This document shows positions 13,567 through 49,503 of a stretch of 64,000 nt of DNA, piece by piece. This DNA comes from a virus (Duplodnaviria > Caudoviricetes): the IMG/VR virus record IMGVR_UViG_3300031151_000426; one strand, written 5' to 3'. Position 1 is the first letter of the stretch. Every line of letters begins with the position of its first letter. Under the pieces are notes generated by a model. That model searched no databases and was not told where the DNA came from. It worked only from the letters and a program-made list of their open reading frames with translations. A program made the translations under genes and the position numbers.

Positions 13567-14037
13567 TCAGGAACCAGACGCGTAGATGCGTTTAGGTTTG
13601 CCGCGTACACGCAGAGAATAGGTAGCGCCAACAACGGAAGAGGTTGCAGCAGACCATGAGCTCTGGCGTACCTCCACCAGCACGTAGAAACCGTTGCCAG
13701 ACGGGAATACCACGCGCAGCGCGCGCAGTTCGTCATTTTCGTAAGCGGTCTGTAGTGCCTCCTGTGCTGCTTCATCGCCAACCCAGTTACGGGTAATGCT
13801 CATTTCAGCAGGCGCGGCGAGGCCGTTGGTTTGCTCCTGTTCAGTTGAGCACAGCGTGGTTACGTCGATATCCCCTTTCTGTCCGCCGGTGAAGGTGATC
13901 TCCTTTGTTGCACAGGCTGCTTCCAGCCAGGTAACACCAGCCCCCGGGAAACCTGAGGCGTTAAAATCCTCGGCGGTTACGGGTGCGTCGGAGACGGCAA
14001 AGGTCATCCCCTTTGTGACTTCATACTTACTGGTCAT
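13567..14037 (-). CDS. Major tail (tube) protein
   Basis: 156 aa; GGQKGDIDVTTLCS motif; flanked by terminators; ends YASGS. Confidence 0.88.
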   Translation of the reverse strand: MTSKYEVTKGMTFAVSDAPVTAEDFNASGFPGAGVTWLEAACATKEITFTGGQKGDIDVTTLCSTEQEQTNGLAAPAEMSITRNWVGDEAAQEALQTAYENDELRALRVVFPSGNGFYVLVEVRQSSWSAATSSVVGATYSLRVRGKPKRIYASGS

Positions 14038-14885: not shown

Positions 14886-15220
14886 TTTTCAACTCCCGTT
14901 TTGCAAAGAATTTCCAGGCGAGTGCCGGTCGCATTTGCTACAGGAGGACCGATGATATTTAGCACCTGACCTTTATACGGGCCGCTGAGGACTTCCAGAC
15001 GAGAAGAGGCATTCAGCTCTGACCTGAAGCGCATCCAGACCCGAATGGTTGCCTGCGCCGTTTCCGCGCCGCCTGACATCTGCTCTCTGCCGCTGATCCC
15101 CTTTACCTCAGCCGGGACCGGGTTGCCACCTGTCCACGATTCAACCGGCTGACCAGATGGATCGCGCGAAGTCGTGAAGGTGAGAATTTTTACCCGGTGC
15201 CTGAATCGTCCAGGTTCCAT
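14882..15220 (-). CDS. Head-tail adaptor / head closure protein
   Basis: GRFRHRV and ISGRE motifs; position in the operon. Confidence 0.85.
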   Translation of the reverse strand: MEPGRFRHRVKILTFTTSRDPSGQPVESWTGGNPVPAEVKGISGREQMSGGAETAQATIRVWMRFRSELNASSRLEVLSGPYKGQVLNIIGPPVANATGTRLEILCKTGVEK

Positions 15221-15546
15221 CAGGAGCCCTCCTCAGGTTCAGATTTACCGCGCCAGTTGCGATGGATTAACATCATCCGTTCTGCGGCGGCGTTCTCATA
15301 AAGCTGTACTTCACTCTGCGCGGTCCTGTGCTCGAACATGTCCGCAAACACCAGCAGTACGGCGCCCTTCACTGCTGCAGGAATGTCAGTTGCCGCTTTC
15401 CATGCCGGTTCATCACACCACCGGTAGCAGTAGTCAAAGGCTGCCTGTGCGTACAGCGTGATCAGCTCGTCCCTGTCATCCTCCTCAAACTCAATCTGCT
15501 GTTTGAAAAGGGGGAGGCTAATTACATCCAAAACATCTATCGCCAT
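15220..15546 (-). CDS. Head-tail connector (HK97 gp6-like)
   Basis: 108 aa MAIDVLDVISL...PAAVKGAVLLVFADMFEHR. Confidence 0.88.
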   Translation of the reverse strand: MAIDVLDVISLPLFKQQIEFEEDDRDELITLYAQAAFDYCYRWCDEPAWKAATDIPAAVKGAVLLVFADMFEHRTAQSEVQLYENAAAERMMLIHRNWRGKSEPEEGS

Positions 15547-15580: not shown

Positions 15581-16738
15581 TCATGAGCCAGAAGAGAAAG
15601 TGCCCTTGATGATTGCCGTCGGGCGATAGTGCGCCAGCGCAAGGCGTTCTTCACACAGGATGGTCAGCATGTTTTTCACGAAGTTATCGCGGTCTTCACG
15701 GCTGACTTCCACGGTGGCATCCATGCGATCCCACACCTGTGAGGCCATATCGAAACCGCCCACCGTAAAGGTACCGGCGGCCTGTGCCTTAGTCGGGACT
15801 ACTGGCAGACCCCACATGATGTTGCTGGTAAACGCCTGAGGACCGCCGAAGATATAGCGGCCTTCATTGTCTTTCAGCAGCGCAATGTTGTGCCAGTCGC
15901 GCGGGTTCAGGACGATACCGGAAGCGCTAAACTCAGATTCGGTCACCTGATAAATAGCGTGAGCGATAATGTCAGCACGGGTGTCGCCGGTGGCATTCAG
16001 CGAGGTGTCGTAGGCGGTTGCCACTTTGTTCAGACCTTCCAGGTTATCCCCGGTGCCGTCTCCGTTCAGAAGCTGGCCTTCTTCCTTCAGTGCCAGGCCG
16101 TACATGAGGCGATTGTTAACGTAGGACTGCAGCATCGGCGCATCGTCCATCACCTGACGTGATGCCTGCACCCAGTGCGCGATGGTCTTCACGTTCGCGG
16201 TCTGTTTGCTGAAGGTGATATCCGATTCTGGCTTAAGCGCTTTCTCCGCCACCACGTCGGCGTTATTGGTAAACACCTCTTCACGCACGTATTCGAGAGC
16301 GTTGCTGGAAATTCGGCCCTGAGCCAGCAGGTCACGGATAGTCAGACGGCGCAGACCAGGCATGATGATGCCAGGCATCTGCATCGGCTGGATCAGTGAG
16401 CCAGCAGAATCAGCGTCACTGCCGAGAGACTTGTTAAACGTCTTCGCGTCGAAGGTGCCCTGTTTGCCGTCCCATGACTTGATGAGCTCTTCAGCAGCAC
16501 GTTCAGAGAAGGATTTCTTCTCACCCGGATTTTCAGCACCGGAAGCCAGTTTCTGTTCCAGATCGAAAAGACGCGTACCGGATTTGGTCAGTTCTTCCTG
16601 CACTTTGGCCAGGTCGGACTGCAGCTGTTTGGAAACCTGGCCCGTGCTTTCGATTTCAGCTTTCTGCGCATCGAACAGCTGGGTCATTTTCTGCTGGGAT
16701 TCTTCGATTGCTTTTTGAATGAGAGCGAGTTCAGACAT
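15581..16738 (-). CDS. Major capsid protein, very close to HK97 gp5
   Basis: 385 aa MSELALIQKAIEESQQ...; delta-domain junction FNK/SLGSD; cross-link residues in AEKALK and FVKNMLTILCEER; ends GTFSSGS. Confidence 0.96.
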   Translation of the reverse strand: MSELALIQKAIEESQQKMTQLFDAQKAEIESTGQVSKQLQSDLAKVQEELTKSGTRLFDLEQKLASGAENPGEKKSFSERAAEELIKSWDGKQGTFDAKTFNKSLGSDADSAGSLIQPMQMPGIIMPGLRRLTIRDLLAQGRISSNALEYVREEVFTNNADVVAEKALKPESDITFSKQTANVKTIAHWVQASRQVMDDAPMLQSYVNNRLMYGLALKEEGQLLNGDGTGDNLEGLNKVATAYDTSLNATGDTRADIIAHAIYQVTESEFSASGIVLNPRDWHNIALLKDNEGRYIFGGPQAFTSNIMWGLPVVPTKAQAAGTFTVGGFDMASQVWDRMDATVEVSREDRDNFVKNMLTILCEERLALAHYRPTAIIKGTFSSGS

Positions 16739-20230: not shown

Positions 20231-20716
20231 TTATCCGTGCTTGGGAAAGGCGATCAGGTTGTCGTCCTGGTCCTGATGCTCGGTTTTGGTATTTCGTGCA
20301 TCACGATCATTCTGATTGCGTTTCTTCTGGTCGCGGCTTTCGCCGTTGGTTGCGTGGGAATGGATCTGGAGGTCACGGCGCTGAGCCAGAATAGTTCGCT
20401 GCAGCTCAACAATTTGCTTGCGGAGGTCTTTGATAAGCCCTTCTTCGCGGCCCTCTCCGCGTGTTCGCTCTTCTTTGCGTAAATCCTTACGTAAAACCGT
20501 GATATAGAGCTGGTTATTTGCCAGTTCTACAGCGGCCAGAAGGTCGGCCGGCGTCCAGCTGTCCAGAGCTTTCGATCTGATATTGTCATGCCAGAATGGT
20601 TCGGCTTTTTTTTCCAAACCTGCATGGGACGGAGGATCGATGGTGTCCACTGCTGCATTTTTCATGGCCTGAACCGCTGCCGCCGAACTGTCGGAACGGG
20701 TTCGTTTATCTGCCAT
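20231..20716 (-). CDS. Terminase small subunit (HK97 gp1-like)
   Basis: 161 aa; directly upstream of TerL and downstream of the cos site. Confidence 0.85.
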   Translation of the reverse strand: MADKRTRSDSSAAAVQAMKNAAVDTIDPPSHAGLEKKAEPFWHDNIRSKALDSWTPADLLAAVELANNQLYITVLRKDLRKEERTRGEGREEGLIKDLRKQIVELQRTILAQRRDLQIHSHATNGESRDQKKRNQNDRDARNTKTEHQDQDDNLIAFPKHG

Positions 20717-20900: not shown

Positions 20901-21104
20901 CTATGCCGAATGTTTGTCTACCTGTTCGAGTTTCTGAGCGCCTTTCCCATGCTCGGGCCACACATGCCCTGAAAAGGTTAGCGTCGGCACGTTTTCTCCT
21001 ACCGTGTGGGAGAACTGGATAGAGGTAACGGTCTTCATCGCTACGCCATCAATTGCCAGCTGAACAAACTTACCGTCACGATACTCGATGATGAGGTCTT
21101 TCAT
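20901..21104 (-). CDS. Small hypothetical protein
   Basis: 67 aa; ATGA overlap with the HNH stop. Confidence 0.65.
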   Translation of the reverse strand: MKDLIIEYRDGKFVQLAIDGVAMKTVTSIQFSHTVGENVPTLTFSGHVWPEHGKGAQKLEQVDKHSA

Positions 21105-21445
21105 TGCGTGCTCCAGTGAGAAGCAGGATCTAGCGGGTAGCCATTGGCATCACAGCCTATTACCGCGCCGCTCTTCTCCATTCTCTGTTTGGTTGAGTCA
21201 TGATGTGCTTTGCACAGTGGCTGCCAGTTCTCTTTACTCCAGAACAGGAGCTGTGCTTTCGATATGGCCAGCGTGTTACCTGACTTAAGCGCCTCTTTGA
21301 GTTTGTGGGGCTCGATATGGTCAACCACCGTTGCTGGGGTTATGCGTCCCTGCTGCTCGCACATCACACATAGTGGGTGCTGCTGCAGGAAACGCAGACG
21401 GGCTTTATCCCATCGGCTGCCATATACGCGGGGCTCTTTGTTCAT
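21101..21445 (-). CDS. HNH endonuclease (HK97 gp74-like packaging cofactor)
   Basis: PLCVMC...VVDHIEPH...NWQPLCKAHH; ATG at 21445 overlaps the upstream TGA. Confidence 0.9.
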   Translation of the reverse strand: MNKEPRVYGSRWDKARLRFLQQHPLCVMCEQQGRITPATVVDHIEPHKLKEALKSGNTLAISKAQLLFWSKENWQPLCKAHHDSTKQRMEKSGAVIGCDANGYPLDPASHWSTQ

Positions 21446-22029
21446 GCCAGTCTCCATGCGCGGCGGCGTTCCGTCCTCGGCTCGTTGTCAGGGTGACGCT
21501 CAACCGTCGGCATGTCGGCATGATCCACCAGCGAGTAACACGGATAAATCACCCGGCCACCGAATGCCTCACCGACGGCGTAATCAGCTGCCAGCGTTTT
21601 ATTCCAGGTGCTGAGCATGCGCCCCAGCCTGCCCTGAGGAGGGCTGTAACATACGCCGTGAATCAGTTTGCTTAATACGATGTGGTCACCACAGACGCGA
21701 TCCGCATCCACCAGCATTCCGGCAATCTCTTTCTGATACTGCGGCGGTCGGCCAGTACCAAGATAAAAGCTCAGCATGTCGTCAGGGAAGCGCACCAGCC
21801 AGTCAGTTACCTTATCGGTGAAGCCCTGCACAGGAAGCGCGTCGTCTTCCAACACTACTACCCGGCAAGGTTGCTCAGCAGCCCATTCGATTGCACGACG
21901 ATGATTCCAGTTCGCGCCGTGGTTACCGCCATCAATCAGCAAATGTGCGCCTATAGCAGAGGTCAGCGCCTCAGCCTGCTGCCGTCTGGCGTGATGACCG
22001 ACCACCGCAAACTTAATCTCTTCAGCCAC
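21442..22029 (-). CDS. Putative glycosyltransferase (GT25-like GT-A domain)
   Basis: 195 aa; VVVLEDDALP DxD-type motif, LSFYLG, HGVCY, ADYAVG, SLVDHAD; GTG start with GGAG RBS. Confidence 0.65.
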   Translation of the reverse strand: MAEEIKFAVVGHHARRQQAEALTSAIGAHLLIDGGNHGANWNHRRAIEWAAEQPCRVVVLEDDALPVQGFTDKVTDWLVRFPDDMLSFYLGTGRPPQYQKEIAGMLVDADRVCGDHIVLSKLIHGVCYSPPQGRLGRMLSTWNKTLAADYAVGEAFGGRVIYPCYSLVDHADMPTVERHPDNEPRTERRRAWRLA

Positions 22030-22046
22030 CAGCGAATCTCCAATAA

Positions 22047-22068
22047 GAAAAGCCGCACGATGGCGGCT
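22047..22068 (-). terminator. Intrinsic terminator within the late operon
   Basis: Minus strand GCCGC-CATCGT-GCGGC-TTTTCTT. Confidence 0.6.
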
Positions 22069-22168
22069 ACTGTCTGAATATCAGGGTGTTGATTATGTCT
22101 AGATTTAGGTATGTTAGGTGCTACCCAAACGCTACTTGGGTGCCCCTTAAAATAAAAAAGGATTAAGT

Positions 22169-22402
22169 ATGTCTGACAATATCATGCAAGAAATCATGGA
22201 AAATTTGATTTATAAGGTCGATGCATTGAATTCAATTGTTGTTCAAATGCAAAACGTATTGACTCCTGAACAGCTTAATAAATTCCAAACCAATACAATT
22301 GAAACATGGAAATTGGTTGAAGAAAAAACACCTCATGAAGCAATTGAAACGGTACTTAAAACCAAGAAATTTGCATTTAAGTATTCTGGGATAAAAGAAT
22401 AA
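22169..22402 (+). CDS. AT-rich antisense moron, hypothetical protein
   Basis: 77 aa; AAGGA RBS; opposite to the late operon. Confidence 0.65.
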   Translation: MSDNIMQEIMENLIYKVDALNSIVVQMQNVLTPEQLNKFQTNTIETWKLVEEKTPHEAIETVLKTKKFAFKYSGIKE

Positions 22403-22498
22403 ACGTTGCAATTGCATCTTCGATGATGTTTTTTACAATTGGAGCAATTACATTCGAAGTTGCTCCATTCTTGAGATTATTCATAAATCACCCTTCCA

Positions 22499-23956
22499 TT
22501 ATTTATGTTGCCACCAAGCTGACTCTTTGCCTAAACCATCCGTTTTGAATACCGTATGAACCAGAGGGCCGGTGACCAGCCTGTCAGCGAACGACTGCGC
22601 GACAATACCGAACGCCAGCATGTCACCCACCGCGGCGCCAGCCTGTTCTTTCTTCCAGAAACGATAACTCTCGATCCGGTAGTAAAGACGGATGATGCCG
22701 TGAGCGAACGCCATTACATCAGCGCGGGTGCCACCCAGCAGACCAGCGTTAAGCATCACATCGCCGCGGTGCGCTTCAATGAATTCCTGATAGATACGCT
22801 CAGGATGATTCTGTTTCGCCCAGGAGTCGGCGTAGGTCTTCGGTTCAGAACCGACATACACCTTCCCGGGTTCCATTTCTTCCCACGGCGCGCGAAGCAT
22901 TTCGACATCGGTACCATCAGTACACCAGACGAACCGGTATTCAGGGTGATCGCGCAGGTGCTGCCAGATATGCAGCCAGCGCCGGAAGTAGACATTCATC
23001 TTCACGTCAGGTACGAGATACAGCTCAACATCTGCCGGTGCCGTCAGTAATTCATCCACCAGCGCAATACGTCCACAATTCCGAAGCGAGGCCGCCCACC
23101 TGGTCAGCATGTCAGGTGAGGCCGTCATTTTCGTGCCGCGCTGAGGGTCAGGCTGGCTGGTCAGTAACGTAGTGATAACCACGTCGCGCTGACGTCGATA
23201 TTCAACGTAATCGGTAAAGCCGGTATCACGCCGTTCGTTGTGGATTTTAACGTTACGTTCCACCAGCGCCTGTCGGTCTGGTTTCGGCACTGACCGCTCC
23301 ACAGCCTCATGCTCATCGAGGGAATGAATCAGCTTTTCTGAACCGACGACATCAGCGTAAGCCCACGTAGTCAGTCCTGCGTTATGGATGCGCAGGGCAA
23401 GGTCGCTGTGTTCGTACATGCCGCGACCATAAACCGGATCGAATCCGCCCACTTTCTCGATGGCGCTGCGGTGGTAGTACAGCATCACACCGCGCTGCCC
23501 GGTGTAAGCCATATGCTGTTCGTCACGGTAAAGCACCGAAAGGTCATTCAGCTTGTTGCGGCCAGCCAGATCGAGAAACTGGTAAGCCAGATGTGGCTCG
23601 GGTGATTCGATGTAAGGAAGATGCCAGTTATCAGCGATAGGCCAGGCGTCATCATCCCATAAAAATAGATGCTCACACCCGGCATCCATCAGGGCTGACA
23701 GGCTGGCGTTCTTCGAAGCAACAATGCCGAGTGATGTTTCATGGCGAAGCAGCTGCACGCCGTCAGGCACCACTGCGGCAGGTTTAGAGCCGTCGTCGAT
23801 AACCACCACCAGCGCACCGACAGGAAGATGTTTGGTGTGCTGCTCAATGGCGCGCTTTAGATCGTCCGCCCGGTTGTGGGTGGTAATCGCAATGCCAATC
23901 CGTGACGCTGAAACACAGGCAGGCAAATACGGGACACCATCAATAGTGACCTGCAT
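22499..23956 (-). CDS. Two-domain glycosyltransferase (GT2 plus a second GT-A domain)
   Basis: N-domain IAITTHNR, VIDDGS, FLWDDD, GGFD...YEHSDLALRI; C-domain VWCTDGTDV...LNAGLLGG. Confidence 0.85.
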   Translation of the reverse strand: MQVTIDGVPYLPACVSASRIGIAITTHNRADDLKRAIEQHTKHLPVGALVVVIDDGSKPAAVVPDGVQLLRHETSLGIVASKNASLSALMDAGCEHLFLWDDDAWPIADNWHLPYIESPEPHLAYQFLDLAGRNKLNDLSVLYRDEQHMAYTGQRGVMLYYHRSAIEKVGGFDPVYGRGMYEHSDLALRIHNAGLTTWAYADVVGSEKLIHSLDEHEAVERSVPKPDRQALVERNVKIHNERRDTGFTDYVEYRRQRDVVITTLLTSQPDPQRGTKMTASPDMLTRWAASLRNCGRIALVDELLTAPADVELYLVPDVKMNVYFRRWLHIWQHLRDHPEYRFVWCTDGTDVEMLRAPWEEMEPGKVYVGSEPKTYADSWAKQNHPERIYQEFIEAHRGDVMLNAGLLGGTRADVMAFAHGIIRLYYRIESYRFWKKEQAGAAVGDMLAFGIVAQSFADRLVTGPLVHTVFKTDGLGKESAWWQHK

Positions 23957-24073: not shown

Positions 24074-24634
24074 ATGCAACAACAAAGCGCTATTGCAAGA
24101 AGACTTAGTGCAGCATTCACTGAGTTTGGCACTAAAGACTACGAAACCACCTTACTTCATCTCTTTCCTGCTTTAGATTCTACGGCGAAAAAAAGAAGAC
24201 CAAAATCAGGGGTTGGAGACAGAATCCGTAAGTTTCTTGAAGATGATGAAGATCTTCTATCCTTTATCGCCCTTGGGTTATGTGTAACTAACATTGAAGC
24301 TGGTGGTAAAACCATACCTCAAGCAATTTATGAGTATGGTCGCTGCTCAATAGAACATGAGGGTGAACTTGACAAAAGGCTGACAATAACCGAAGAACAA
24401 CAAATGCTATTAGGAGGCCAGTGGGTACTTCCAGTAGGATATATTTTTGGCATGATGATGTTAGTTTTAGTCGCGCCTGAGAACAAAGATGAAAAGTTTA
24501 CCTCCGATTTTGGCATTATCGTGAGGGGTGTACAATTCAACGCTAATGAAAGTTGGGGTCAAATTTTGACGTGCAGAGAAAAAATTGGTCTCAATGCCAT
24601 GAAACAAAGAATCTCTTCAAGTCGTCACAGTTAA
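24074..24634 (+). CDS. Antisense moron with a HEPN-like RxxxxH motif
   Basis: 186 aa; GGAG RBS; YEYG-RCSIEH-EG; AT-richer than its neighbours. Confidence 0.65.
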   Translation: MQQQSAIARRLSAAFTEFGTKDYETTLLHLFPALDSTAKKRRPKSGVGDRIRKFLEDDEDLLSFIALGLCVTNIEAGGKTIPQAIYEYGRCSIEHEGELDKRLTITEEQQMLLGGQWVLPVGYIFGMMMLVLVAPENKDEKFTSDFGIIVRGVQFNANESWGQILTCREKIGLNAMKQRISSSRHS

Positions 24635-25036: not shown

Positions 25037-25252
25037 TCACTCCTGCTTCTGGCAGTTCGCCTGCCACGCTTTGTCATGCGCCAGGATGTCTTTCTTCGTC
25101 TGGCGGGCCATAACGTCTATGTCGTGATCAGTCAGGTAGATTGGCTTTACCCAGTCACAGGCAGTATCAACCACCACCGGGACGCTTCCACGTTTCGCGC
25201 AGCTCGCGATCAACATCGTCATCAGGCATATGGTTAACAGTCTGCTGTACAT
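25037..25252 (-). CDS. o-spanin (Rz1-like lipoprotein)
   Basis: Lipobox IASC; VVDTACDWVKPI motif; overlaps the i-spanin end. Confidence 0.8.
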   Translation of the reverse strand: MYSRLLTICLMTMLIASCAKRGSVPVVVDTACDWVKPIYLTDHDIDVMARQTKKDILAHDKAWQANCQKQE

Positions 25253-25442
25253 TGCTGGCCTCTTTCGTTGCTTCTACCCGACGTTCGGCTAATGCTTCAG
25301 TGGCAGCGGCCTTATCTTCGGCGCGCTGCTGGTCAGCTTTCTCTTCCGCTTTGCTGGTGCCGCGTGAATGACCAATGCCAAAAGCACCAGCGATAGCAGC
25401 CATTACCAGCGCAGCAATACCGACGATCGTTTCTAATCCCAT
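25167..25442 (-). CDS. i-spanin (Rz-like)
   Basis: N-terminal TM segment plus Ala/Glu-rich coiled coil; follows the endolysin. Confidence 0.8.
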   Translation of the reverse strand: MGLETIVGIAALVMAAIAGAFGIGHSRGTSKAEEKADQQRAEDKAAATEALAERRVEATKEASNVQQTVNHMPDDDVDRELRETWKRPGGG

Positions 25443-25449
25443 CTCTAGC

Positions 25450-26076
25450 TCACACCAGTACCGTTTTGGCCTGACCGAAGCGAGCGCGACGATCTTCAAG
25501 TCCGTTCGTTCCGCCGTTGATAATCTTCGTCACCTGCAACAGGTCGCCGGAATACTTAAGGCAGCCCTTAGTTGTGAAGAACCACGCCGCGCTTCTTGCG
25601 GCATAAAGGTCTTTCGCTAAAAGTTCAGGCTCCTGTACAAGATCAACCTTGAGCCCATTGCCGCAATCACGGTAATTTTTGAGACCAGTAATCTGGATAA
25701 GGCCACGCCCACGGTATAACCATCCGTCACCCGGCGCATTGTTGCCGTTACGTTTGCTGTAGACCAGATTGGCAATGGCGCGCTGGCGTTCGATCGGTAA
25801 TGTCCGTTCCTCAGGACGGCGGCCAAGCTCATTTGCCTGTTCTGCTGTGAGGCGTCCAGCGCGGATGAAATTAACCAGGCCAGCAATCCGATAGTTGAAA
25901 CTCTCCACCAGCAAAGTAAAACCAGCTGATTCATGCCCTGTCTGAGCAATAAACATTGCCTGGTCTACCGGCCTGGTGATGCCGAACTCTTTCATTGCTT
26001 CGCTTACTGGCTGAAACCAGCGCGCGGCTAACTCGACGCTTAACCCAGCCGCCTTTTGAAATTGTGATTGGTTCAT
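25450..26076 (-). CDS. Endolysin, glycoside hydrolase family 19
   Basis: [20 protein letters not shown] and TKIINGG.NGL.DR motifs. Confidence 0.92.
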
Positions 26077-26357
26077 TAGTGCCTCAGTGCATCAACCAGG
26101 CGTGCTACGTTTCCCCGAGCCCAGAGAACGGCAGCACAGATCAGGACGTTGACCAGCACCACAAACCAGTGTGATTCATGGTACAAGCCGAACAGGTAAC
26201 GGAAAGGGACGCTGGCGTATACCAGCACCGTAAAATAAGCCATCAGCGAAATCAGAGGGCGATGTCTCGCCCCGCCGCGCTGGTAGAACATCAGTGCAAT
26301 AACGATAACAGCAGAGATAATTGCGTTTGCCATCGCACTCGGATCACTTGTTACCAT
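26076..26357 (-). CDS. Holin-family membrane protein
   Basis: 93 aa, three TM segments, ARGNVA C-terminal motif. Confidence 0.8.
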
Positions 26358-26739
26358 TGCTGGCCCCTCCACCACGTAATCGTGAGAGAATTCCAAACAG
26401 GCTACCCAAATCCTGACTGTTGACGAACGTCAGCAGCTTAATCGCAATAGCGGCTACTATTACCGCGCCCAGCGCATCAAGTGGCCTGTCGCTATACCCC
26501 GTCCATTTAGAGAAGTAAGATCCAAGCAGTGGAGCGCCAATAACGCCGAAGATGAATGAGGTGATGAAATAGCCCACCAGCTTAAGGCGACTGATATTAA
26601 CCGCCGTAGCGACGTAGAATACCGCACCGGCGAATGCGCCAAACACCACACCGTAATCGATGCCGGTTGCCAGGCCGAACATGCTGGCCCCCATGAGACC
26701 ACCAGCCGCTACCGTAGTGCCAGAAACAGGATCGGACAT
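26344..26739 (-). CDS. Putative holin/antiholin
   Basis: 131 aa, multiple TM segments, GAFAGAVFYV motif. Confidence 0.8.
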   Translation of the reverse strand: MSDPVSGTTVAAGGLMGASMFGLATGIDYGVVFGAFAGAVFYVATAVNISRLKLVGYFITSFIFGVIGAPLLGSYFSKWTGYSDRPLDALGAVIVAAIAIKLLTFVNSQDLGSLFGILSRLRGGGASNGNK

Positions 26740-26853
26740 TTAGCCCCCTCTTATTGCCGTGAGTCCTCTCATAACTGAGGGGAAATAAAAAAGGCCCGCC
26801 GAGGCGAGCCTTAAATTTTTTAGTTTAGAATTCAGTTCATACTACTGACCGTT

Positions 26854-27135
26854 TCATTCACGGGGAGGAGAGAGTTTAGCTTTAACTTTCAGAAACCATT
26901 TTGGAGGTTTAGATTTTGGTCGCCATAAAGCTCGTGCCTCTCTGCGTGCCCGCTCTTCTGTCATGCCAGGAATTTCCATCCATCTTTTATAGCTTCGGTG
27001 TTCAAAGAATCTATTTAATAAATATGAAAGCAGAGGAAGAATAAATTTGATTATGGTCGCGACAAAGACAAGGGTTGTCATTGCTGCAAAATGCTCTACC
27101 AACTTACCAGGAAGCGATGTTATGAATTCAAGCAT
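26854..27135 (-). CDS. Moron: small membrane-anchored protein between Q and the lysis genes
   Basis: 93 aa; hydrophobic segment then a basic C-terminus; AT-rich; bracketed by terminators (~26788-26811, ~27146-27171). Confidence 0.6.
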   Translation of the reverse strand: MLEFITSLPGKLVEHFAAMTTLVFVATIIKFILPLLSYLLNRFFEHRSYKRWMEIPGMTEERARREARALWRPKSKPPKWFLKVKAKLSPPRE

Positions 27136-27222
27136 TTTTCATCCAAAAAAACCCGCGGGTGGGGCGGGTTTATGTTTTGTTCTGTTGCTCAGTACGCTTT
27201 ACTGTCCCGAGCCTAACACAAT

Positions 27223-27801
27223 TTAAGCACTTTCTTGCTCACTCTGCAACTTATATCTGTCGCTATTTGTGCCGAACGCGTCACAAAGTGGTGCATACAG
27301 GATCGATTCGGCCAAACTTACCCATGTGTCAATTCGGCGGCGGCAGGTGATAAGGGTCCAGTCAGGATGTTTTGCATTAAGCTCGTTGGCCATCTGCAGC
27401 TTGCTCTTACGGAGTCGATGGCGGTCGACGATGACGCCATAAAGTGATCGGTAGTCGTCATTCATCAGTACGGAAGCAATAACACCATCCACCTTCAGAC
27501 CTTCTTCATCCGAGCAGAACGCCAGGCCGCTTTTGTTTTTGCTGTCGAGGATTTCGCGCAGGTATGCTTCCAGCTCAGGTTTAGTGATGCCGGATTTCTT
27601 CATGCGGCGCAGCGCATCGTTGATTGCTGTCTTGGTGATTTTCCCGGATGCCAGTAGCTGGTTAAACATGTTGCCTCCTGATCCGCCACCGATATAAGAC
27701 CAGCGGCCCCACATACGGAGCTTACCTTGTACCCAGATGCTTTCGAGAGTTCGAAGGCGAACCATCTCGCCGGATTTGCCAACTTCGGAAGGATTGATCA
27801 T
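27223..27801 (-). CDS. Late antiterminator Q-like protein (DUF1133-like)
   Basis: WVQGKLRMWGRWS and TCRRRIDTWVSLAE motifs; last gene before the late region. Confidence 0.75.
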   Translation of the reverse strand: MINPSEVGKSGEMVRLRTLESIWVQGKLRMWGRWSYIGGGSGGNMFNQLLASGKITKTAINDALRRMKKSGITKPELEAYLREILDSKNKSGLAFCSDEEGLKVDGVIASVLMNDDYRSLYGVIVDRHRLRKSKLQMANELNAKHPDWTLITCRRRIDTWVSLAESILYAPLCDAFGTNSDRYKLQSEQESA

Positions 27802-27814
27802 GTTGCGTCTCCAC

Positions 27815-28804
27815 TTACGCCAGTGCGCCGATTGCCAGCGCACGATCTAAAAACCGAAACAACAGCGTTAACTGGTCGCCGTGCTTCGCTTCAAATGCCA
27901 CAGGATCAGCGTGCAACTCATCGTGATGCGCTCTGCACAGCGGTATCACAAACAGGTCGTGCGCTTTGGTACCCATTCCACCCTGCCCGTGGCCTATCAG
28001 GTGGTGTGGGTCGTCTGCCGGGTTATTGCAGCAACTGCACTGCTGCGACTTAACCCAGCGGGTGTACGTCTCGTTCTCCCAGCGGCGGCGCTTTGGCCTC
28101 AGCATGAAAGATTCCGTTGATTCAGGGTCTACCTTAACGGAGACAACCTTCTTCACCTTCTCCTGGAGGATTTCAGTCGCCGGTAATGACGGAACAATGT
28201 CGCTTTCCCGCATCACTGAACTGTGCTTTTCTGGCTTAATCCTTAGGGCCTGGCTCGCCACTGATTCAGGAATCAAGTCAGCTAGATCGTTACGTACCAT
28301 CCACCAGCAGAGCTCCGGCAGCGTCAGGGTGTGGTCTGCGCTAAAGCCCAGCATAATATTCACCCTTTCGAGTAGCCATTTTACCAGGTTCTGCATGGCA
28401 ATTCCTGCCAGTCTTTCAGTGGTTTGTTCACGTAACTGGTTATCACAGCCCCAGCAAAGGCGAATGCTTCCGGGGGCATGACGCATCACCGTAAAGTCCT
28501 TTGAGTGCCATTCATTGTGGGGCCACTGACATTCGAATTTACGTTCCAGCCAGGCATCAAGACTGCTAAGCCCACCAGCACGCTGAATAATCCGCTCGTT
28601 CAGGAAAAGCTCCTGCATACTGACATCATCTGTCAGTGGCTGGTGCGCTTCAGGAATCAGGCCAGATGGCAGGTGCTGGATTGCTTCGGAAGGCGTTTCA
28701 ATCACTACACGGCCACGACGAAACAGCCACAGCAATTCGTTACCTGGGCGGAACAGTACCACCCCGGACATTGGCGCAACTTCAGGTGTCAGTATGGCTC
28801 TCAC
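27815..28804 (-). CDS. DUF968-family protein with C-terminal HNH-like Zn domain
   Basis: CSCCNNPADDPHHLIGHG...VIPLCRAHH. Confidence 0.85.
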   Translation of the reverse strand: MRAILTPEVAPMSGVVLFRPGNELLWLFRRGRVVIETPSEAIQHLPSGLIPEAHQPLTDDVSMQELFLNERIIQRAGGLSSLDAWLERKFECQWPHNEWHSKDFTVMRHAPGSIRLCWGCDNQLREQTTERLAGIAMQNLVKWLLERVNIMLGFSADHTLTLPELCWWMVRNDLADLIPESVASQALRIKPEKHSSVMRESDIVPSLPATEILQEKVKKVVSVKVDPESTESFMLRPKRRRWENETYTRWVKSQQCSCCNNPADDPHHLIGHGQGGMGTKAHDLFVIPLCRAHHDELHADPVAFEAKHGDQLTLLFRFLDRALAIGALA

Positions 28805-29931: not shown

Positions 29932-30248
29932 AAAGTCACTCCCTGTTTTTTCAGCCATTCCACCGCGTTATCTCTGGCCATGTCTCCACCGGATAACAGG
30001 CCTTTAATGATCGCTACCGGATCAGCATCCCATTCTGTTTTGACGATAGTAATGCCCCTGGCAGCGCCAGGAGCAACGGAGATATACCCTTTTTTCTTGA
30101 GCGCCTTTACGTGCTCAGCAGCAGCGTTCGGTGATGCGCAGCCAATTAACCCGGCAAGCTCCAGCATCGTCGGCGGGAATCCAGTTCTTTCCTTGTAGAG
30201 CACTATGGCATCCAGCACTTCACTCTGACGCGACGTTAATTCAGTCAT
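29928..30248 (-). CDS. Stand-alone LexA-type DNA-binding domain protein
   Basis: LTSRQ.EVLD...GFPPT..ELA...SPNAAAEHVKAL.KKGYI...ARGI; no S24 peptidase domain. Confidence 0.85.
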   Translation of the reverse strand: MTELTSRQSEVLDAIVLYKERTGFPPTMLELAGLIGCASPNAAAEHVKALKKKGYISVAPGAARGITIVKTEWDADPVAIIKGLLSGGDMARDNAVEWLKKQGVTL

Positions 30249-30907
30249 GCAACCTCCCCTTTAGCCCAGTCGATAGCGCAGACAACACCCGGTAACAAAT
30301 GAACGGCTGGGCGCTCAGCCTGATTTCCCCAATGGTCCCAGCCAGGCGCAGCGCAGCGGCTGAAGAGTTCGATGCGAGGAACGTCACCGTAAAGTTTTTC
30401 CAGGCGGAAACGCGCCTCGGCTGGCTTCTGGCTGTGTTCGCCGAGTGGGCTGTAGATAACCTGCTTGATGCTGGCACACTGGCGTTCGAGCCCATTTCCC
30501 CTGGTGGCAATCAGCAGGTCTTCAGTATTGGCTCGGGTGTAGTTGCCGCCGTTCATGCGGGTCTGTGCGTTCAGCAGGTCGAGGAAATCGTAAAAGCCCT
30601 CTACTCCACCAGCCTGAAGCGCTTTGTTGATGTGCTGCTCCGCCAGCGGGTTGAACTTCACCCAGGTAAAGCCCTTCATCGTGCGGACCTTAAAGCCCCA
30701 TGCTTCAGCCAGCTCAATGGCTTCGCGGGTATGCGTGCCGGTGAACCACATGGCCAGAACAGCATCCTCTGCAGCTAGGTCCCAAACAGGGAGGCGCTTC
30801 ATGTCGATCAGCTTCATCGTGCCGTAGTGATTAGTAGCCGCGCCGTTGCTGACGGTGTTCCCGTATTCCCAGGCAGGGTCAGCGTAAATAAGTGAATATT
30901 TCATCAT
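30245..30907 (-). CDS. MT-A70-family N6-adenine methyltransferase
   Basis: YSLIYADPAW, FTWVK, YTRANTEDLLIA, HSQKP, RIELFSR. Confidence 0.9.
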   Translation of the reverse strand: MMKYSLIYADPAWEYGNTVSNGAATNHYGTMKLIDMKRLPVWDLAAEDAVLAMWFTGTHTREAIELAEAWGFKVRTMKGFTWVKFNPLAEQHINKALQAGGVEGFYDFLDLLNAQTRMNGGNYTRANTEDLLIATRGNGLERQCASIKQVIYSPLGEHSQKPAEARFRLEKLYGDVPRIELFSRCAAPGWDHWGNQAERPAVHLLPGVVCAIDWAKGEVA

Positions 30908-30917
30908 ATTCTTCCCC

Positions 30918-31670
30918 TCAGATTTCTAAGGCCAACTGTGGAGTAAAGCGGTCTCGTACTGCGTCATACTTGAGAGCGCTTGCGCTGTTAAATGCCTCAA
31001 TACGCTCAACGAGGACGGCGGCGCGGGTTTCTTTGCTGGCTGGCGCATAGGCTGATTTATCCCATGCCTTATCAATACCGATATTGCGTGCCACGTTTGT
31101 GCTGTCAGCTGATGAGAGCGGTATGTGAGTAAAAATGTCTTTATTCAGCATGCGAAGGCCATGGAGCTTGGTAATCGGATAGCCATTTGAATCGACAACG
31201 TGACGGATAAGGTCTCGCAATTTTGCCCGGCATGCGCGGGGACGCTTTGCATCGTATTCACCCATAGAACCAATGCAGACACGCGGAAACTCATGGCAGA
31301 GACGTATGAATCTCTCGTCAGGTTCGCTCATATGCCAGACAGGCGCACCGACGAATTTACCGTGCGGCCATTCAGCGATAAGCGCATCGTTCTCTTCGCT
31401 GGTGCCTCCGATAACATCAGGGATAACTGCAAATGAGAAACGAGGGTGATTCATCCACTCCTTGACGAATTCGTAATAGTCGAACCAGTTAACAGGCTGG
31501 CCCTTATCCCAGAAGCTGAACGCTCCGTTATCAAGTGCGAAAGATTGAGTTACCTCACTGGCAAGCTTAAGTTGCCCAGGGTTAGCGAAGCTGATGAACG
31601 CATGGCGACCTTTCCAGGCTTTCAGTGCGCACGTATCAGGCGTGATTGGTCCTCCGTGGAAGTGGATCAT
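30918..31670 (-). CDS. tRNA-guanine transglycosylase (TGT/DpdA)-like protein
   Basis: Ordered motifs ALDNGAFS, IPDVI, PVWH, VCIGS, KLHGL, SSADST follow the TGT barrel pattern. Confidence 0.55.
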   Translation of the reverse strand: MIHFHGGPITPDTCALKAWKGRHAFISFANPGQLKLASEVTQSFALDNGAFSFWDKGQPVNWFDYYEFVKEWMNHPRFSFAVIPDVIGGTSEENDALIAEWPHGKFVGAPVWHMSEPDERFIRLCHEFPRVCIGSMGEYDAKRPRACRAKLRDLIRHVVDSNGYPITKLHGLRMLNKDIFTHIPLSSADSTNVARNIGIDKAWDKSAYAPASKETRAAVLVERIEAFNSASALKYDAVRDRFTPQLALEI

Positions 31671-32164
31671 CAAACGTTCCTCGCTCGGCCAGCCAGACAC
31701 CAATCATCGCCGGTGGTTTTAACCCTCGGCGCCATACTTAGGCAGCGCTTACGCTCCTTGAGAATTTTGGCTCGCTTAGTTTCGTTCTTTGATCGATTGA
31801 ATGCTTCCATCAGAACGGTTGCGGCACGCAGGAACAGGCCTTTGTCGGAAAGTTCTTTAGCCTTATCCATCAATGCAACGACAGCAGGGTTTGGTATGGT
31901 TTCCTGCTTTGGCTCAGGAGCTATTTCAGCTTTTTCTACCGGGTAGCGCGGGACAATCGGCCCGATTGGACCAACCGGCGCTTTTGCGTAGTAACGGAAG
32001 TTGTGGCGTTCGCCTTTGCGCTCAGCGCGGTTAAGCATGACCAGGCGGCATACCGCACGCTGCACGCTGTGTAATTCGTACTCCGGCAGTGCTGCGGCGA
32101 TCTCTTTGTTCGTCAGTCCAGGGTTATTGGCCACGAACAGCTGGATTGTTTTCAGAAAGCTCAT
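31670..32164 (-). CDS. PerC-family regulator with N-terminal wHTH
   Basis: NPGLTNKEIA HTH; AKELSDKGLFLRAA PerC-like motif. Confidence 0.7.
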   Translation of the reverse strand: MSFLKTIQLFVANNPGLTNKEIAAALPEYELHSVQRAVCRLVMLNRAERKGERHNFRYYAKAPVGPIGPIVPRYPVEKAEIAPEPKQETIPNPAVVALMDKAKELSDKGLFLRAATVLMEAFNRSKNETKRAKILKERKRCLSMAPRVKTTGDDWCLAGRARNV

Positions 32165-40855: not shown

Positions 40856-41083
40856 ATGAGCGGACAAAGCCAACGTTTTCTTACCCCTGATGACCTCTAT
40901 CAGCTTACTGGTTATCGTCGCCCTTCCCTTCAGTGCCGAGCGCTGAAAGAAAGTGGTGTATTTTTCGTGCCACGTAAAGACGGCAGGCCAGGCACCACAT
41001 GGGATCATGTAACCAACCCTGCAGGCCTCAAGCTGGTAGTAAACAATCCAGAGGAAGAAGAACCAAACTTTAAGGACATGTAA
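40856..41083 (+). CDS. Excisionase-like protein (DUF4224)
   Basis: FLTPDDLYQLTGYRRPSLQCRAL...DGRP...EPNF; coupled to int. Confidence 0.82.
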   Translation: MSGQSQRFLTPDDLYQLTGYRRPSLQCRALKESGVFFVPRKDGRPGTTWDHVTNPAGLKLVVNNPEEEEPNFKDM

Positions 41084-42093
41084 TGCCCAGAATCCGCAAA
41101 AACCCAGATGATAACTGGATGCCGCCCCGCGTTCGCCGGGGCAAGTCAGCCTATGAGTTCAGAACGCCTGACGGAAGAACAGTAAGATTGTGCAACCACG
41201 ATCTCACTAAGTCTCAGGTATGGGCAGCCTATGAAAACTTCATCAACGATATCAAGGTTGGTTCCAACTTCCACGCACTTTGCGAAGAGTTTTTTAACTC
41301 TGGTGACTTTCATGAACTGGCAACAGAAACCAGAAAGGATTACCGGAAATATGGTTCGAAGGTAAATGTTGTTTTCGGAAAGATGAAACCAGAAAATATC
41401 AAGCCGGAGCACATCAGAAAGTATATGGATAAGAGAGGAGTTAAGAGCAGGGTTCAGGCGAACCGAGAGAAAGCGTTTATGTCGAGAGTGTTCAGGTGGG
41501 CATATGAGCGTGGCAAAGTGAAGATGAATCCATGCCAGGGTGTGAAGCAGTTTAAGGAGCAGGCGCGCACACGTTACGTCACGGACAAAGAATATGATGC
41601 ACTATTCAGCGTTTCTTCGGTACCGGTGAAGATTGCTATGGAATTGGCCTATTTATGCTGTGCACGTCAGGGTGACATCCTGGATCTTAAAAAGAGTCAA
41701 ATTCTTGATGAAGGTATTCTAATTCAGCAAAGCAAGACGGCAGTTAGTCAAATTAAAGCGTGGACAGTACGCCTGGCAAATGCGATCACCCTGGCTGATT
41801 CCCTTCCGTTAGCTAGCGGCATGGTAAGCCTGTACGTGATCCACCAGCAGTCAGGTTCTCGTTACACACGAGATGCATTTAACTCTCAGTGGATGAAGGC
41901 GAAAAAGTTAGCTGCAGAAAAATTTTCTGAGCTCGAATTTAACTTCACGTTCCATGATCTGAAAGCTAAAGGGATATCTGATCTGGAAGGAACGCTGCAT
42001 GAGAAACAGGAAATTTCAGGCCACAAAAATGCTTCGCAGACTGCAAGATATAACCGCAAAATATCTGTAGTGCCGGTGGTTGGAGGGCAGTAA
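41083..42093 (+). CDS. int: Tyrosine integrase
   Basis: CARQGD, QSKT, TFHDLKAK, SGH...TARY catalytic motifs; adjacent to att. Confidence 0.93.
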   Translation: MPRIRKNPDDNWMPPRVRRGKSAYEFRTPDGRTVRLCNHDLTKSQVWAAYENFINDIKVGSNFHALCEEFFNSGDFHELATETRKDYRKYGSKVNVVFGKMKPENIKPEHIRKYMDKRGVKSRVQANREKAFMSRVFRWAYERGKVKMNPCQGVKQFKEQARTRYVTDKEYDALFSVSSVPVKIAMELAYLCCARQGDILDLKKSQILDEGILIQQSKTAVSQIKAWTVRLANAITLADSLPLASGMVSLYVIHQQSGSRYTRDAFNSQWMKAKKLAAEKFSELEFNFTFHDLKAKGISDLEGTLHEKQEISGHKNASQTARYNRKISVVPVVGGQ

Positions 42094-42452: not shown

Positions 42453-42722
42453 ATGGCTACCGCAAAAGAGTCGAATGCAGGAGCAATGCCTGAGTTAACT
42501 GATTTTGCTATCAGTTACTGCGCGCTCACAGAACATGTTCTGTTACACGCCAAATTTACAGACACTATGGCTTCTGTCCCATCATGGCCGTCAGTGCAAT
42601 TCCCTGATCAAACGATCTGCTTGTCCCGCAGACAAGCTGAAAATCTCCTGCATGAACTAAAGAAAGCCGTCGATTACATAGATGCTGGCATTGAGCATCC
42701 TTCCATTAAATTCATCGACTAA
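42453..42722 (+). CDS. LexA-controlled hypothetical protein
   Basis: 89 aa; AAGGA RBS; first gene after the SOS promoter. Confidence 0.7.
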   Translation: MATAKESNAGAMPELTDFAISYCALTEHVLLHAKFTDTMASVPSWPSVQFPDQTICLSRRQAENLLHELKKAVDYIDAGIEHPSIKFID

Positions 42723-42732
42723 AAGGTGTCTC

Positions 42733-42999
42733 ATGTTCGTTGAACTGGTCTATGACAAGCGAAATGTTGAAGGGCTCCAAGGGGCCAGAGAAATTATTCT
42801 GGCCGAGCTGACGAAGCGGGTGCACCAGATTTTCCCTGATGCCGAAGTGAAGGTGAAGCCGATGCAGGCGAACGGTTTGAATAGCGATGCAAGTAAAAAC
42901 GATCGTGAAAAGCTGAACCGCATGCTGGAGGATATGTTTGAAGAGTCCGACATGTGGCTGGTTTCTGAATTCCCATCAGTCCGCCAAGTTGGACTGTAA
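42733..42999 (+). CDS. dinI: DinI-family protein
   Basis: 88 aa; near-identical to 2004-2270. Confidence 0.85.
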   Translation: MFVELVYDKRNVEGLQGAREIILAELTKRVHQIFPDAEVKVKPMQANGLNSDASKNDREKLNRMLEDMFEESDMWLVSEFPSVRQVGL

Positions 43000-43359: not shown

Positions 43360-44514
43360 ATGAATGTTTTTGTTGAATATGCGATTTTGTTTACTTTCTT
43401 AATAGGGTGCGGATTAATATTTTCCTTACCTAAGTTTGGTTTTGTGGATGACAAAGAAATTTCCAATACAAATCATAACACCCCAATGGATGCATTAAGA
43501 TTTTTTCTTGCGTCTTTTGTATTCATCAGTCATGAGATAGGTTTCTTTTATTATTTTACTGATGGTAAATTCACACATCCATTTGTTGGCATTAGTATGC
43601 TTTCGCATGTTGGTGTGGCTTTATTTTTCTCTATTACAGGGTATCTATTCTGGGGTAAAATTAAGCGAGGCAGTGTAAATTGGATTTCTTTGTATAAAGG
43701 GAGATTCTTTAGAATAGTTCCTTTAGTATGGTTTAATTCATTACTTATTATTTTAGTTGTTTGCTTTCTCTCTAGAGAAATGCCAAGCATGAATGCATTA
43801 CACTGGTTTGACTTTATAAATAATCACCGCCCTGATTTTACATCATATAAAGAAACATTTATGTTCACGGCTGGTGTATTTTGGACTCTTGCTTTTGAGT
43901 GGGGTTTTTACATAGCTCTTCCTGCCTTATCGTTGATTGTAAAAAGATCTTTTGAATTCAGCATGTTCTTTGTGTTCGTTCTCGTTTACGCTTCTCCTTA
44001 CATAACATTAAAAATTCCTTTTAACTTTTTTTTGTTTTTTGCTATAGGAATGCTTGCGTCAGACGTTGCGGAAAAAATTAATTTACAACAAAAACACTTT
44101 AATTTCATATTCATTTCCTCTCTGATTGCTTTGTTATTTTGCGATGACAGGATTTACCGAGTTGACTCTTTCTCGAATGTTCTTTTGTTTTTAATCATAC
44201 TTAGCGTAGCTAAAGGGGCAGATTTATTTGGATTGCTTAGCATAAGAGGATTCAGGCGGTTGGGTGTCGCAAGTTATAGCATATATGTAATGCATGCTTT
44301 CGTTATAATGTGTGCGTTCAAGCTATTCAACTCGCTAGGTATCTTAAAAAACAATCCAATTACAATAATGCTATCTCTAAGTATTTCCGTACTGTATATT
44401 TCATTAATAACATACCATTTAATTGAGAAAAGATTCATGACCCTTGGTCGAGGGGTTAAATTTAACGCACCCGCACTTACAGATAAAAATGCTAACCAAA
44501 TAGAAAAACCATAA
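43360..44514 (+). CDS. Acyltransferase family 3 (OafA/Oac-like O-antigen acetylase)
   Basis: MDALRFF...SH, GVALFFSITGYL, RFFRI.P, FWTLAFEWGFY, LGVASYSIYVMH, YHLIEK; multi-TM; very AT-rich. Confidence 0.9.
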   Translation: MNVFVEYAILFTFLIGCGLIFSLPKFGFVDDKEISNTNHNTPMDALRFFLASFVFISHEIGFFYYFTDGKFTHPFVGISMLSHVGVALFFSITGYLFWGKIKRGSVNWISLYKGRFFRIVPLVWFNSLLIILVVCFLSREMPSMNALHWFDFINNHRPDFTSYKETFMFTAGVFWTLAFEWGFYIALPALSLIVKRSFEFSMFFVFVLVYASPYITLKIPFNFFLFFAIGMLASDVAEKINLQQKHFNFIFISSLIALLFCDDRIYRVDSFSNVLLFLIILSVAKGADLFGLLSIRGFRRLGVASYSIYVMHAFVIMCAFKLFNSLGILKNNPITIMLSLSISVLYISLITYHLIEKRFMTLGRGVKFNAPALTDKNANQIEKP

Positions 44515-48896: not shown

Positions 48897-48915
48897 TTGG
48901 TAGGCTCCAGAAAGC

Positions 48916-49484: not shown

Positions 49485-49503
49485 TTAAACTAAGTGCCTG
49501 CCT

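Follow-up and report, generated by a model that had tools for sequence, protein, structure and literature searches.

A candidate virion-glycosylation cassette in the late operon of an HK97-like enterobacterial prophage

Results

Two glycosyltransferase genes lie between the spanin genes and cos

The subject of this work is a cassette of two glycosyltransferase (GT) genes in a prophage of the virus record IMGVR_UViG_3300031151_000426 (IMG/VR; Duplodnaviria, Caudoviricetes). We analysed a stretch of 64,000 nucleotides (hereafter the window), which is part of an 81-kb provirus record in a viral-contig collection and whose positions 1 to ~42100 hold an HK97-like lambdoid prophage read on the minus strand. 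The larger gene encodes a two-domain protein of 485 amino acids (GT485; 22499-23956, minus strand) that matches the PHROGs family phrog_1579, 'glycosyltransferase', over its full length (E 2e-252), and the smaller one encodes a GT-A protein of 195 amino acids (GT195; 21442-22029, minus strand) that matches phrog_854 over residues 4-194 of 195 (E 3e-71). As had been stated in a preliminary description made from the sequence alone, both genes are co-oriented and sit between the spanin genes (25037-25499, minus strand) and cos. The latter was placed with blastn: the left 60 nucleotides of the HK97 genome align to 20765-20706 (98%) and its right 330 nucleotides to 21095-20766 (88.5%), the right and left genome ends meeting at a cos junction at 20765/20766.

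The two GT genes are not adjacent in the window, where a low-GC insert of 469 bp (22030-22498; 35% GC) sits between them. It holds a plus-strand open reading frame (ORF) of 77 amino acids (22169-22402; phrog_35718, to which PHROGs assigns no function) and a terminator-like hairpin on the minus strand (22068-22051). Among 135 related loci, which include some contigs in duplicate views, the GT genes abut in 82 and are separated by a gap of 400-800 bp in 46. The GT485/GT195 junction is thus an insertion hot spot, occupied here by the opposite-strand ORF and with the insert absent or replaced in relatives; at the same junction phage mEp390 (L002 21499-22011) carries an HNH endonuclease gene similar to Corndog gp56. 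On the cos side GT195 is followed by the gene of a packaging-associated HNH endonuclease of the HK97 gp74 type (21101-21457, minus strand; Pfam HNH E 2e-5, phrog_2323 E 1e-53). The overlap of the GT195 stop codon with the HNH start codon that the preliminary description had reported is present as an ATGA, but the ATG concerned is codon 5 of the longest HNH ORF, whose first ATG is found 12 nucleotides upstream.

Both GT genes have the base composition of the phage around them, with GC contents of 0.552 and 0.577 compared with 0.545-0.549 for the terminase large subunit (TerL) and capsid genes and 0.35-0.38 for the inserted ORFs. Neither protein has a transmembrane-like segment, the highest Kyte-Doolittle means over 19 residues being 1.37 and 0.92 versus 2.15 for the holin; the earlier claims of phage-like GC and of soluble enzymes are therefore borne out. 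A scan for promoters and terminators returned counts (3 versus 7.7 and 10 versus 9.0 in shuffled sequences) that are essentially no higher than in the shuffles, and is thus uninformative on separate regulation of the genes. Logan contigs from RNA-seq libraries of three studies (X1, X10 and X14; relatives that are ~90% identical) cover the genes from the terminase small subunit (TerS) through HNH and GT195 to GT485, and the X14 contig reaches on to the spanin and holin genes; such contigs are not evidence of transcription or of a single transcript.

Structure predictions support three GT-A domains

From short motifs the preliminary description had assigned three GT-A-type domains to the pair, namely a GT2 domain and a PLOD/LH3-type domain in the larger protein and a GT25-like fold in the smaller one. 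The motifs are all present in the translations (IAITTHNR, IDDGS, WDDD, CTDGTDV and LNAGLLGG in GT485; VLEDDA in GT195), and AlphaFold2 (AF2) models support three GT-A domains across the two proteins: GT195 is predicted as a single GT-A fold with a predicted local distance difference test score (pLDDT) of 96.4, and GT485 as two Rossmann-like halves with a pLDDT of 90.3. The family labels are resemblances, not memberships, and both proteins stay under every Pfam threshold.

The N-terminal domain of GT485 spans residues ~18-250 (23207-23905) and the C-terminal one residues ~255-485 (22502-23194). Against Pfam GT2 (PF00535) the N-terminal domain scores 18.7 bits, under the cut-off of 23.3, while some close homologues have a precomputed PF00535 match; since the score is sub-threshold but fold and profile are similar to those of GT2 enzymes, we call this domain GT2-like rather than a member of GT2. 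NCBIfam yields weak matches of the same domain to exopolysaccharide and mycofactocin glycosyltransferases (E ~1e-6, far below cut-offs). For the C-terminal domain no match to the Pfam PLOD/LH3 domain (PF25342) was found at E<=0.1; LH3 is among the Foldseek matches of whole GT485 (E 1.9e-7), behind GT2 and GT6 enzymes, and the ESM Atlas links the C-terminal domain to a phage cluster with GT_PLOD in 51% of its members (rank 15, score 0.93), which is a lead only. The best Foldseek matches of GT485 are heparosan synthase 2 (E 6e-12) and the chondroitin polymerase K4CP (E 1e-10), and its profile matches the chondroitin synthase N-domain (E 1.5e-4); a sequence search of the PDB returned no match at E<=1. 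Residues D54, D55, D101 and D103 of the N-terminal domain and D347, T349, D350, N403, A404 and G405 of the C-terminal domain are invariant in 36 GT485 homologues. As modelled, the two-domain build suggests that one protein carries out two different transfers.

GT195 has no Pfam match, GT25 (PF01755) included, yet PF01755 is matched by 13 of 79 members of its family (best E 8.6e-8). In these 79 sequences R15, D63, Y89, G91, S166, H170 and R189 are invariant and D62 is nearly so; the conserved acidic (E/D-D-D) motif and the C-terminal His expected of an enzyme of the gp110/gp38 type are both present. The Foldseek neighbours of the model are mimivirus R655, GnT-I, LH3, COLGALT1 and polypeptide GalNAc-transferases (ppGalNAc-T2), with template-modelling (TM) scores of ~0.5-0.57; among these R655, LH3, COLGALT1 and ppGalNAc-T2 act on proteins. 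The best PDB match is R655 (Foldseek E 5e-7, TM 0.57; profile E 0.013); COLGALT1 reaches a profile E of 0.19 and a Foldseek E of 5e-4. A complex prediction of GT195 with the tail tube scored 0.00, which has no bearing either way.

GT195 is related to capsid-glycosylation enzymes of mycobacteriophages

Comparison with virion-glycosylating enzymes, proposed earlier as a check, gave a clear result for the small protein. By BLASTP GT195 is a homologue of Che8 gp110 (34% identity, E 2e-25) and of Corndog gp38 (34% identity, E 1e-16), and it also matches Sparky gp89 (E 2e-20). Excerpts of a report describe Che8 gp110 and Corndog gp38 as the two essential capsid-glycosylation enzymes (PMC12363180), and according to excerpts of two others it is the C-terminal ends of capsid and tail-tube subunits that bear the glycans (PMC12619734, PMC11600133). 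The GT195 family is small and phage-centred, with 493 cluster representatives (E<=1e-3) among 1.84 billion.

Searching 50,697 phage records with both proteins by tblastn, we found GT485 matches in 605 records, 567 of them from Mycobacterium phages, with at least 80% coverage in 383, and GT195 matches in 713, of which 654 are from Mycobacterium and 23 from Gordonia phages. Identity to GT485 is 82-94% in the enterobacterial lambdoid phages Fostie, LMessi, mEp390, HK542, ENT39118, FSL SP-016, ECP1, Fraca and AsXd-1, 74% in Cronobacter phage ENT47670 and 55% in Klebsiella jumbo phages (phiKp24). The full-length resemblance of GT485 to mycobacteriophage enzymes that had been put forward in the preliminary description holds for the glycosyltransferases of Sparky and of cluster F phages (44-48% identity) but not for Che8 gp108 and gp109, to which GT485 is not similar (best E 3.3 and 0.21).

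In a protein collection the best 120 of 783 GT485 matches are all at least 82% identical and named 'glycosyltransferase family 2 protein', and they come from Enterobacter, Klebsiella, Citrobacter, Cronobacter, Salmonella and E. coli; the nearest GT485 protein cluster has 4655 member sequences. Relatives carry an orthologous pair that is annotated only as glycosyltransferase/glucosyltransferase or as hypothetical (gp54 and gp56 in mEp390), and the enterobacterial records and the literature searched assign no target to it. The cassette is widespread, already annotated in generic terms and functionally unstudied.

The genes sit among virion genes in unrelated genome layouts

The right end of Che8 reads gp108-110 (glycosyltransferases), gp111, gp112 (HNH) and cos, and prophiGD27-1 has the order GT gp82, gp83, HNH gp84, TerS gp85; the order of the window (GT genes, HNH, cos, TerS) is the same as in both. 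The GT485 and GT195 genes are adjacent in Sparky (gp88-89), in the Klebsiella jumbo phage phiKp24 and in ENT47670, where the pair falls within the tail operon, the major tail protein gene immediately preceding it, and a separate gtrABC cluster stands beside the integrase. Corndog has its GT genes between portal-region genes and the capsid gene. Clustering of the GT genes beside packaging or structural genes, as seen for gp110 and gp38, is thus found in the window as well as in Che8, prophiGD27-1, Corndog and ENT47670. GT genes are thus placed with virion genes in four genome layouts that are unrelated to one another, which speaks for a function directed at the virion.

Capsid and tail-tube proteins of carriers tend to end in Gly-Ser

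Both proposed acceptors in the window end in Gly-Ser (GS): the HK97-type major capsid protein of 385 amino acids (15581-16738, minus strand; phrog_10 E 1e-86) in ...KGTFSSGS and the short tail-tube protein of 156 amino acids (13567-14037, minus strand; phrog_158 E 7e-41, Pfam tube domains only) in ...RIYASGS. Since the capsid and tube proteins of Che8 end in the same way, we compared C-termini more widely; a C-terminal Ser or Gly-Ser as the mark of a substrate (here ...SSGS and ...ASGS) is a criterion derived within this analysis. The family-positive set comprised 9 siphoviruses with 18 capsid and tube proteins, the distant family members being taken from annotated GenBank phages. Capsid and tube ends are SGS and SGS in the window, TGS (...NKTGS) and DGS (...YSDGS) in Che8, DES (...DADES) and DGS in Ogopogo, VGS and GDS in Corndog, ATS and PSS in ENT47670, GGS and GGS in Sparky, TSA and AGS in Syleon, AGS and AGS in prophiGD27-1, and SGS and DGS in MooMoo. 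Thirteen of the 18 proteins end in GS and 17 in Ser. The scaffolding protein of Ogopogo (L164 4568-5116) ends in ...SGAGS, although the capsid protein of that phage ends in ...DADES.

The family-negative set consisted of 8 phages with 15 proteins, the Bxb1 tube being left out; negative status was established by annotation, whole-record search and family profile, with Che8, Corndog and Syleon matched as positive controls. Here the capsid and tube ends are QLA and TAS in lambda, KLA and TVS in N15, SGS and TIS in HK97, SGS and VTP in HK022, TEA and PEG in L5, PAA and ISV in TM4, and VTP and TAA in Giles, and the Bxb1 capsid ends in SVG. GS ends occur in 2/15 (both of them the HK97-type capsid) and Ser ends in 5/15. 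Positive and negative phages differ at p=0.0013 in GS ends and at p=0.00045 in Ser ends (Fisher test), values that overstate the case since several capsid and tube families are represented more than once and the proteins lack phylogenetic independence. As background, 537 ORFs of at least 100 amino acids contain 8 GS ends and 53 Ser ends.

Only three of the 131 ORFs of at least 100 amino acids in the window end in GS, namely the capsid, the tube and the head-tail adaptor Ad1 (108 amino acids, ...EEGS; 15220-15546, minus strand; phrog_40). The HK97 homologue of Ad1 is likewise GS-ended (...SEEGS), and going by its C-terminus Ad1 might, speculatively, be a third acceptor.

The cassette is the rule in the HK97 group

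Viral contigs were scanned with the capsid protein of the window, which gave 80 contigs at >=95% identity. The cassette is carried by 66 of them, 11 are non-carriers (by whole-record searches, and for HK97 by annotation) and 3 are fragments of unknown status. The cassette is therefore the rule in this phage group, and HK97, which has a KilA-N gene in its place, is the exception. Nor is the pair rare among named phages, since it is annotated in mEp390, HK542, ENT39118 and ECP1.

All 66 carriers have the GS end on the capsid, as do 8 of the 11 non-carriers, the other 3 ending in -SAD (L070, L072 and L075). Tail tubes divide more sharply: 56 carriers have short GS-ended tubes (147-156 amino acids) and 3 have tubes of the HK97 gp12 type, with a C-terminal immunoglobulin (Ig)-like domain and ending in TLTIS or TLTVN, the tubes of 7 carriers not having been found, and among non-carriers there are 6 Ig-type tubes ending in TLTIS, 1 short GS-ended tube and 4 with other tails. 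The association of tube type with the cassette has a Fisher p of 6e-6 with no phylogenetic correction. By Pfam, HK97 gp12 has an Ig domain (residues 153-224) and the short tubes have none. The short GS-ended tube thus goes with the cassette, and the Ig-decorated tube is mostly found without it.

Other genes of the window

Upstream of the cassette the prophage has a Q-like antiterminator (27223-27843, minus strand; phrog_753 E 3e-67), two holins (26076-26739, minus strand), an endolysin (25450-26076, minus strand) and the spanins, all of which (25037-27843) share the orientation of the two GT genes. Between the spanins and GT485 lie a 99-amino-acid ORF and, on the plus strand, a low-GC (0.38) ORF of 186 amino acids (24074-24634) that has no Pfam or PHROG family and no homologue in 54 related loci; relatives carry ~1 kb of different sequence at this site within the late operon. 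A 67-amino-acid ORF separates HNH from cos. Past cos come TerS (20231-20716, minus strand; 97% identity to the HK97 TerS region in related loci), TerL, portal, protease, capsid, connectors, tail tube, tape measure and fibres, in this order.

The early region, between the antiterminator and the integrase (41083-42093, plus strand), holds CI, Cro and CII-like regulators, replication genes and RusA; the GT genes are ~17 kb distant from the integrase. A DpdA-like gene annotated as 'queuine tRNA-ribosyltransferase' (30918-31703, minus strand; phrog_887 E 1e-94) stands beside a DNA methyltransferase gene (30245-30907, minus strand), and going by the gene content (30245-31703) this suggests 7-deazaguanine modification of the phage DNA. 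Past the integrase there are a DinI-like gene (42682-42999, plus strand) and a low-GC (~0.35-0.39) O-acetyltransferase/O-antigen-acetylase-like gene (43360-44514, plus strand), which is a classical lysogenic-conversion moron and contrasts with the GT pair. The remainder of the window (44557-64000, minus strand) is a second, unrelated prophage with myovirus genes for a baseplate wedge, a tape measure with a lytic domain, a tail sheath, a protease and a portal.

Discussion

Here we have described a two-gene cassette that probably O-glycosylates the capsid and tail tube of the virion that encodes it. This function had been proposed in the preliminary description, and it is supported by homology, by gene order and by the correlation with the ends of the presumed substrates; the computational tests that were run all point that way. 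We picture the two genes as a module for O-glycosylation of virion proteins that would be expressed with the Q-dependent late genes and would act in the cytoplasm once the cell has been induced. Initiation would fall to GT195, a small Mn-type GT-A enzyme from the family of Che8 gp110 and Corndog gp38, which would transfer a first sugar from a host nucleotide-sugar to the presumed acceptor, the presumably exposed C-terminal ...Gly-Ser of the major capsid and short tail-tube proteins. GT485, which is built like bifunctional glycan polymerases, would then add at least two more sugars, so that in the complete virion hundreds of capsid and tube subunits would be glycosylated.

Several observations weigh against this interpretation. 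The analysis establishes homology, folds, conserved catalytic residues, gene order and a statistical link with the C-terminal Gly-Ser; the glycan itself, the choice of initiating enzyme, the acceptor residue, the sugars and the late expression are things we infer. The Pfam matches of both proteins are sub-threshold or absent, the domain calls resting on PHROGs, profiles and folds. The correspondence between cassette and C-terminus is imperfect: HK97, HK022 and six further non-carrier contigs keep the capsid -SGS, one non-carrier has a GS-ended tube and three carriers have Ig-type tubes without GS. Among family-positive phages, four proteins have a terminal Ser that is not part of a GS end (the capsid and tube of ENT47670, the capsid of Ogopogo and gp49 of Corndog), and the Syleon capsid ends in -TSA. 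The jumbo myovirus phiKp24 has the pair, yet its C-termini are YLS in the capsid, ANG in the sheath and VAI in the tube; 2 of its 347 ORFs of at least 120 amino acids are GS-ended, one of them a 'virion structural protein' (E 3e-9), which is too thin to weigh. For the Corndog tube (gp49), the Giles tube (gp15) and the ENT47670 capsid, position or annotation was the only basis of the assignment, and the recurrence of protein families in the comparison inflates its significance, just as the 80 contigs, all at least 95% identical in the capsid gene, are kin. The prophage also encodes a DpdA-like DNA-modification gene. Finally, the abstract of Freeman et al. 2023 is said to report little evidence of glycosylation beyond actinobacteriophages, in the broader phage population. 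Our literature searches (virion and capsid glycosylation, the named enterobacterial phages, phiKp24), which did not cover Freeman et al. 2023, turned up no account of a glycosylated virion for enterobacterial phages; the phiKp24 paper does not mention it, and the structural-dendrogram and Jabs preprints contain nothing on Che8 glycosylation. Ten phages stained in another study, E. coli phage JEP7 among them, showed no glycoprotein according to the excerpts of that source, in which no glycosyltransferase genes are named (PMC12894461).

Some of these observations would fit enzymes that glycosylate another protein or small target, be it a host factor or defence protein, or else a phage protein that is minor or non-structural. 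The capsid and tube are proposed acceptors, GT-negative phages retain the same capsid end, phiKp24 combines the pair with a capsid, sheath and tube that lack the GS end, and in PHROGs the two families fall in the category 'moron, auxiliary metabolic gene and host takeover'. We nevertheless regard such a target as unlikely, since the gp110/gp38 homologues are described as essential to capsid glycosylation in the excerpts cited above (PMC12363180), in carriers it is specifically the capsid and tube proteins that show an excess of GS and Ser ends, and ENT47670 has the pair within its tail operon. An inactive remnant could be suspected from the sub-threshold Pfam scores and from the insert that splits the two genes in the window, but this is the least credible of the alternatives: both ORFs are intact, the catalytic-type residues are invariant across the 79 GT195 and 36 GT485 homologues, and the cassette is kept in 66/80 related contigs, with 4655 members in the nearest GT485 cluster.

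Modification of host lipopolysaccharide (LPS) or O-antigen, i.e. lysogenic conversion, is a natural suspicion given that temperate enterobacterial phages often carry serotype-conversion glycosyltransferases and that the N-terminal domain of GT485 weakly matches exopolysaccharide and mycofactocin enzymes in NCBIfam. Converting cassettes of the gtrABC type consist of membrane proteins beside int/att, often with atypical GC, and the GT pair has none of these traits: the proteins lack transmembrane segments and signal peptides, their GC is that of structural genes, and the genes are in the late operon, far from int/att. Moreover, the window has its separate low-GC O-antigen-acetylase-like gene near the integrase, ENT47670 has its separate gtrABC cluster by the integrase, and the same pair occurs in lytic, jumbo and mycobacterial phages, all of which makes conversion quite improbable. 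Glycosylation of phage DNA against restriction, which we hold to be marginally less probable still, would agree with the proximity of the packaging genes, with the DpdA-like transglycosylase and DNA methyltransferase encoded by the prophage, and with the PHROGs name of the small family, 'glucosyltransferase'. DNA glucosyltransferases of the T4 type require hydroxymethylcytosine DNA and have a GT-B fold. No gene of a pathway for a base that could be glycosylated, such as a hydroxymethyl-pyrimidine, was found among the 20 early-region ORFs scanned; a DpdA homologue occurs in 2/54 GT-centred loci (full 10 kb upstream) versus 16/54 for RusA; mEp390 has the cassette without an annotated DpdA; and the fold relatives are GT-A enzymes, several of which glycosylate proteins.

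If the cassette does glycosylate capsid and tail tube, a broader and more tentative idea can be entertained, which we consider possible but somewhat doubtful. The C-terminal Gly-Ser, or more loosely Ser, might be a portable 'glyco-tag' that is read by the gp110-family enzyme and that unrelated capsid and tube families of actinobacterial and enterobacterial phages have gained independently. Virion glycosylation would then be normal in the HK97 group, HK97 would be a secondary loser that keeps the tag, and on tubes the glycan would take the functional place of the C-terminal Ig-like domain. Were this so, the particles that thousands of Enterobacteriaceae prophages release in the gut would be coated with sugars, and two genes together with a three-residue tag could be used to glycosylate chosen proteins in the E. 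coli cytoplasm.

Virion glycosylation in phages so far rests on mycobacteriophages. Its occurrence here would extend the modification to HK97-type capsids, the best-studied capsid family, and to a very common prophage group of Enterobacter, Klebsiella, Citrobacter, Cronobacter, Salmonella and E. coli; it would bear on antibody and mucus recognition of gut phages, on the choice of therapy phages and on the interpretation of capsid and tail structures. What is new here is the Gly-Ser end as a concrete acceptor hypothesis and the pattern of Ig domain versus glycan on tail tubes as a checkable idea. The question is directly testable with the existing laboratory phages HK542 and mEp390 on E. coli K-12.

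As to known systems, gtrABC cassettes share with the GT pair that they are phage-encoded sugar transferases, and differ in being membrane proteins encoded near att, whereas the GT pair are soluble late-gene products. The collagen-type enzymes (the GT25 enzyme COLGALT1 and the GT domain of LH3/PLOD) and mimivirus R655 have GT-A folds as well, but the relationship is remote (~10% identity, TM ~0.5), and the acceptor proposed here is a C-terminal Ser whereas theirs is hydroxylysine. The E. coli K4 chondroitin polymerase and Pasteurella heparosan synthase 2 are the best structural matches of GT485 over both of its domains; the whole-chain TM score is only ~0.3, and the domain arrangement is therefore different. 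Closest are the mycobacteriophage systems of Che8 (gp108-110) and Corndog (gp35-38), which likewise combine a GT195 homologue with several clustered GT genes, and the predicted system of the window differs from them in its Gram-negative enterobacterial host and its HK97-type capsid with a delta domain. The Corndog system includes a methyltransferase that has no counterpart in the cassette, and in place of Che8 gp108 and gp109 the partner here is an unrelated two-domain enzyme of 485 amino acids; with Che8 the window shares the order of GT genes, HNH and cos and the Gly-Ser ends on capsid and tail tube. Judged by these sequence relationships, the cassette is probably an enterobacterial member of the known gp110-type kind of virion glycosylation.

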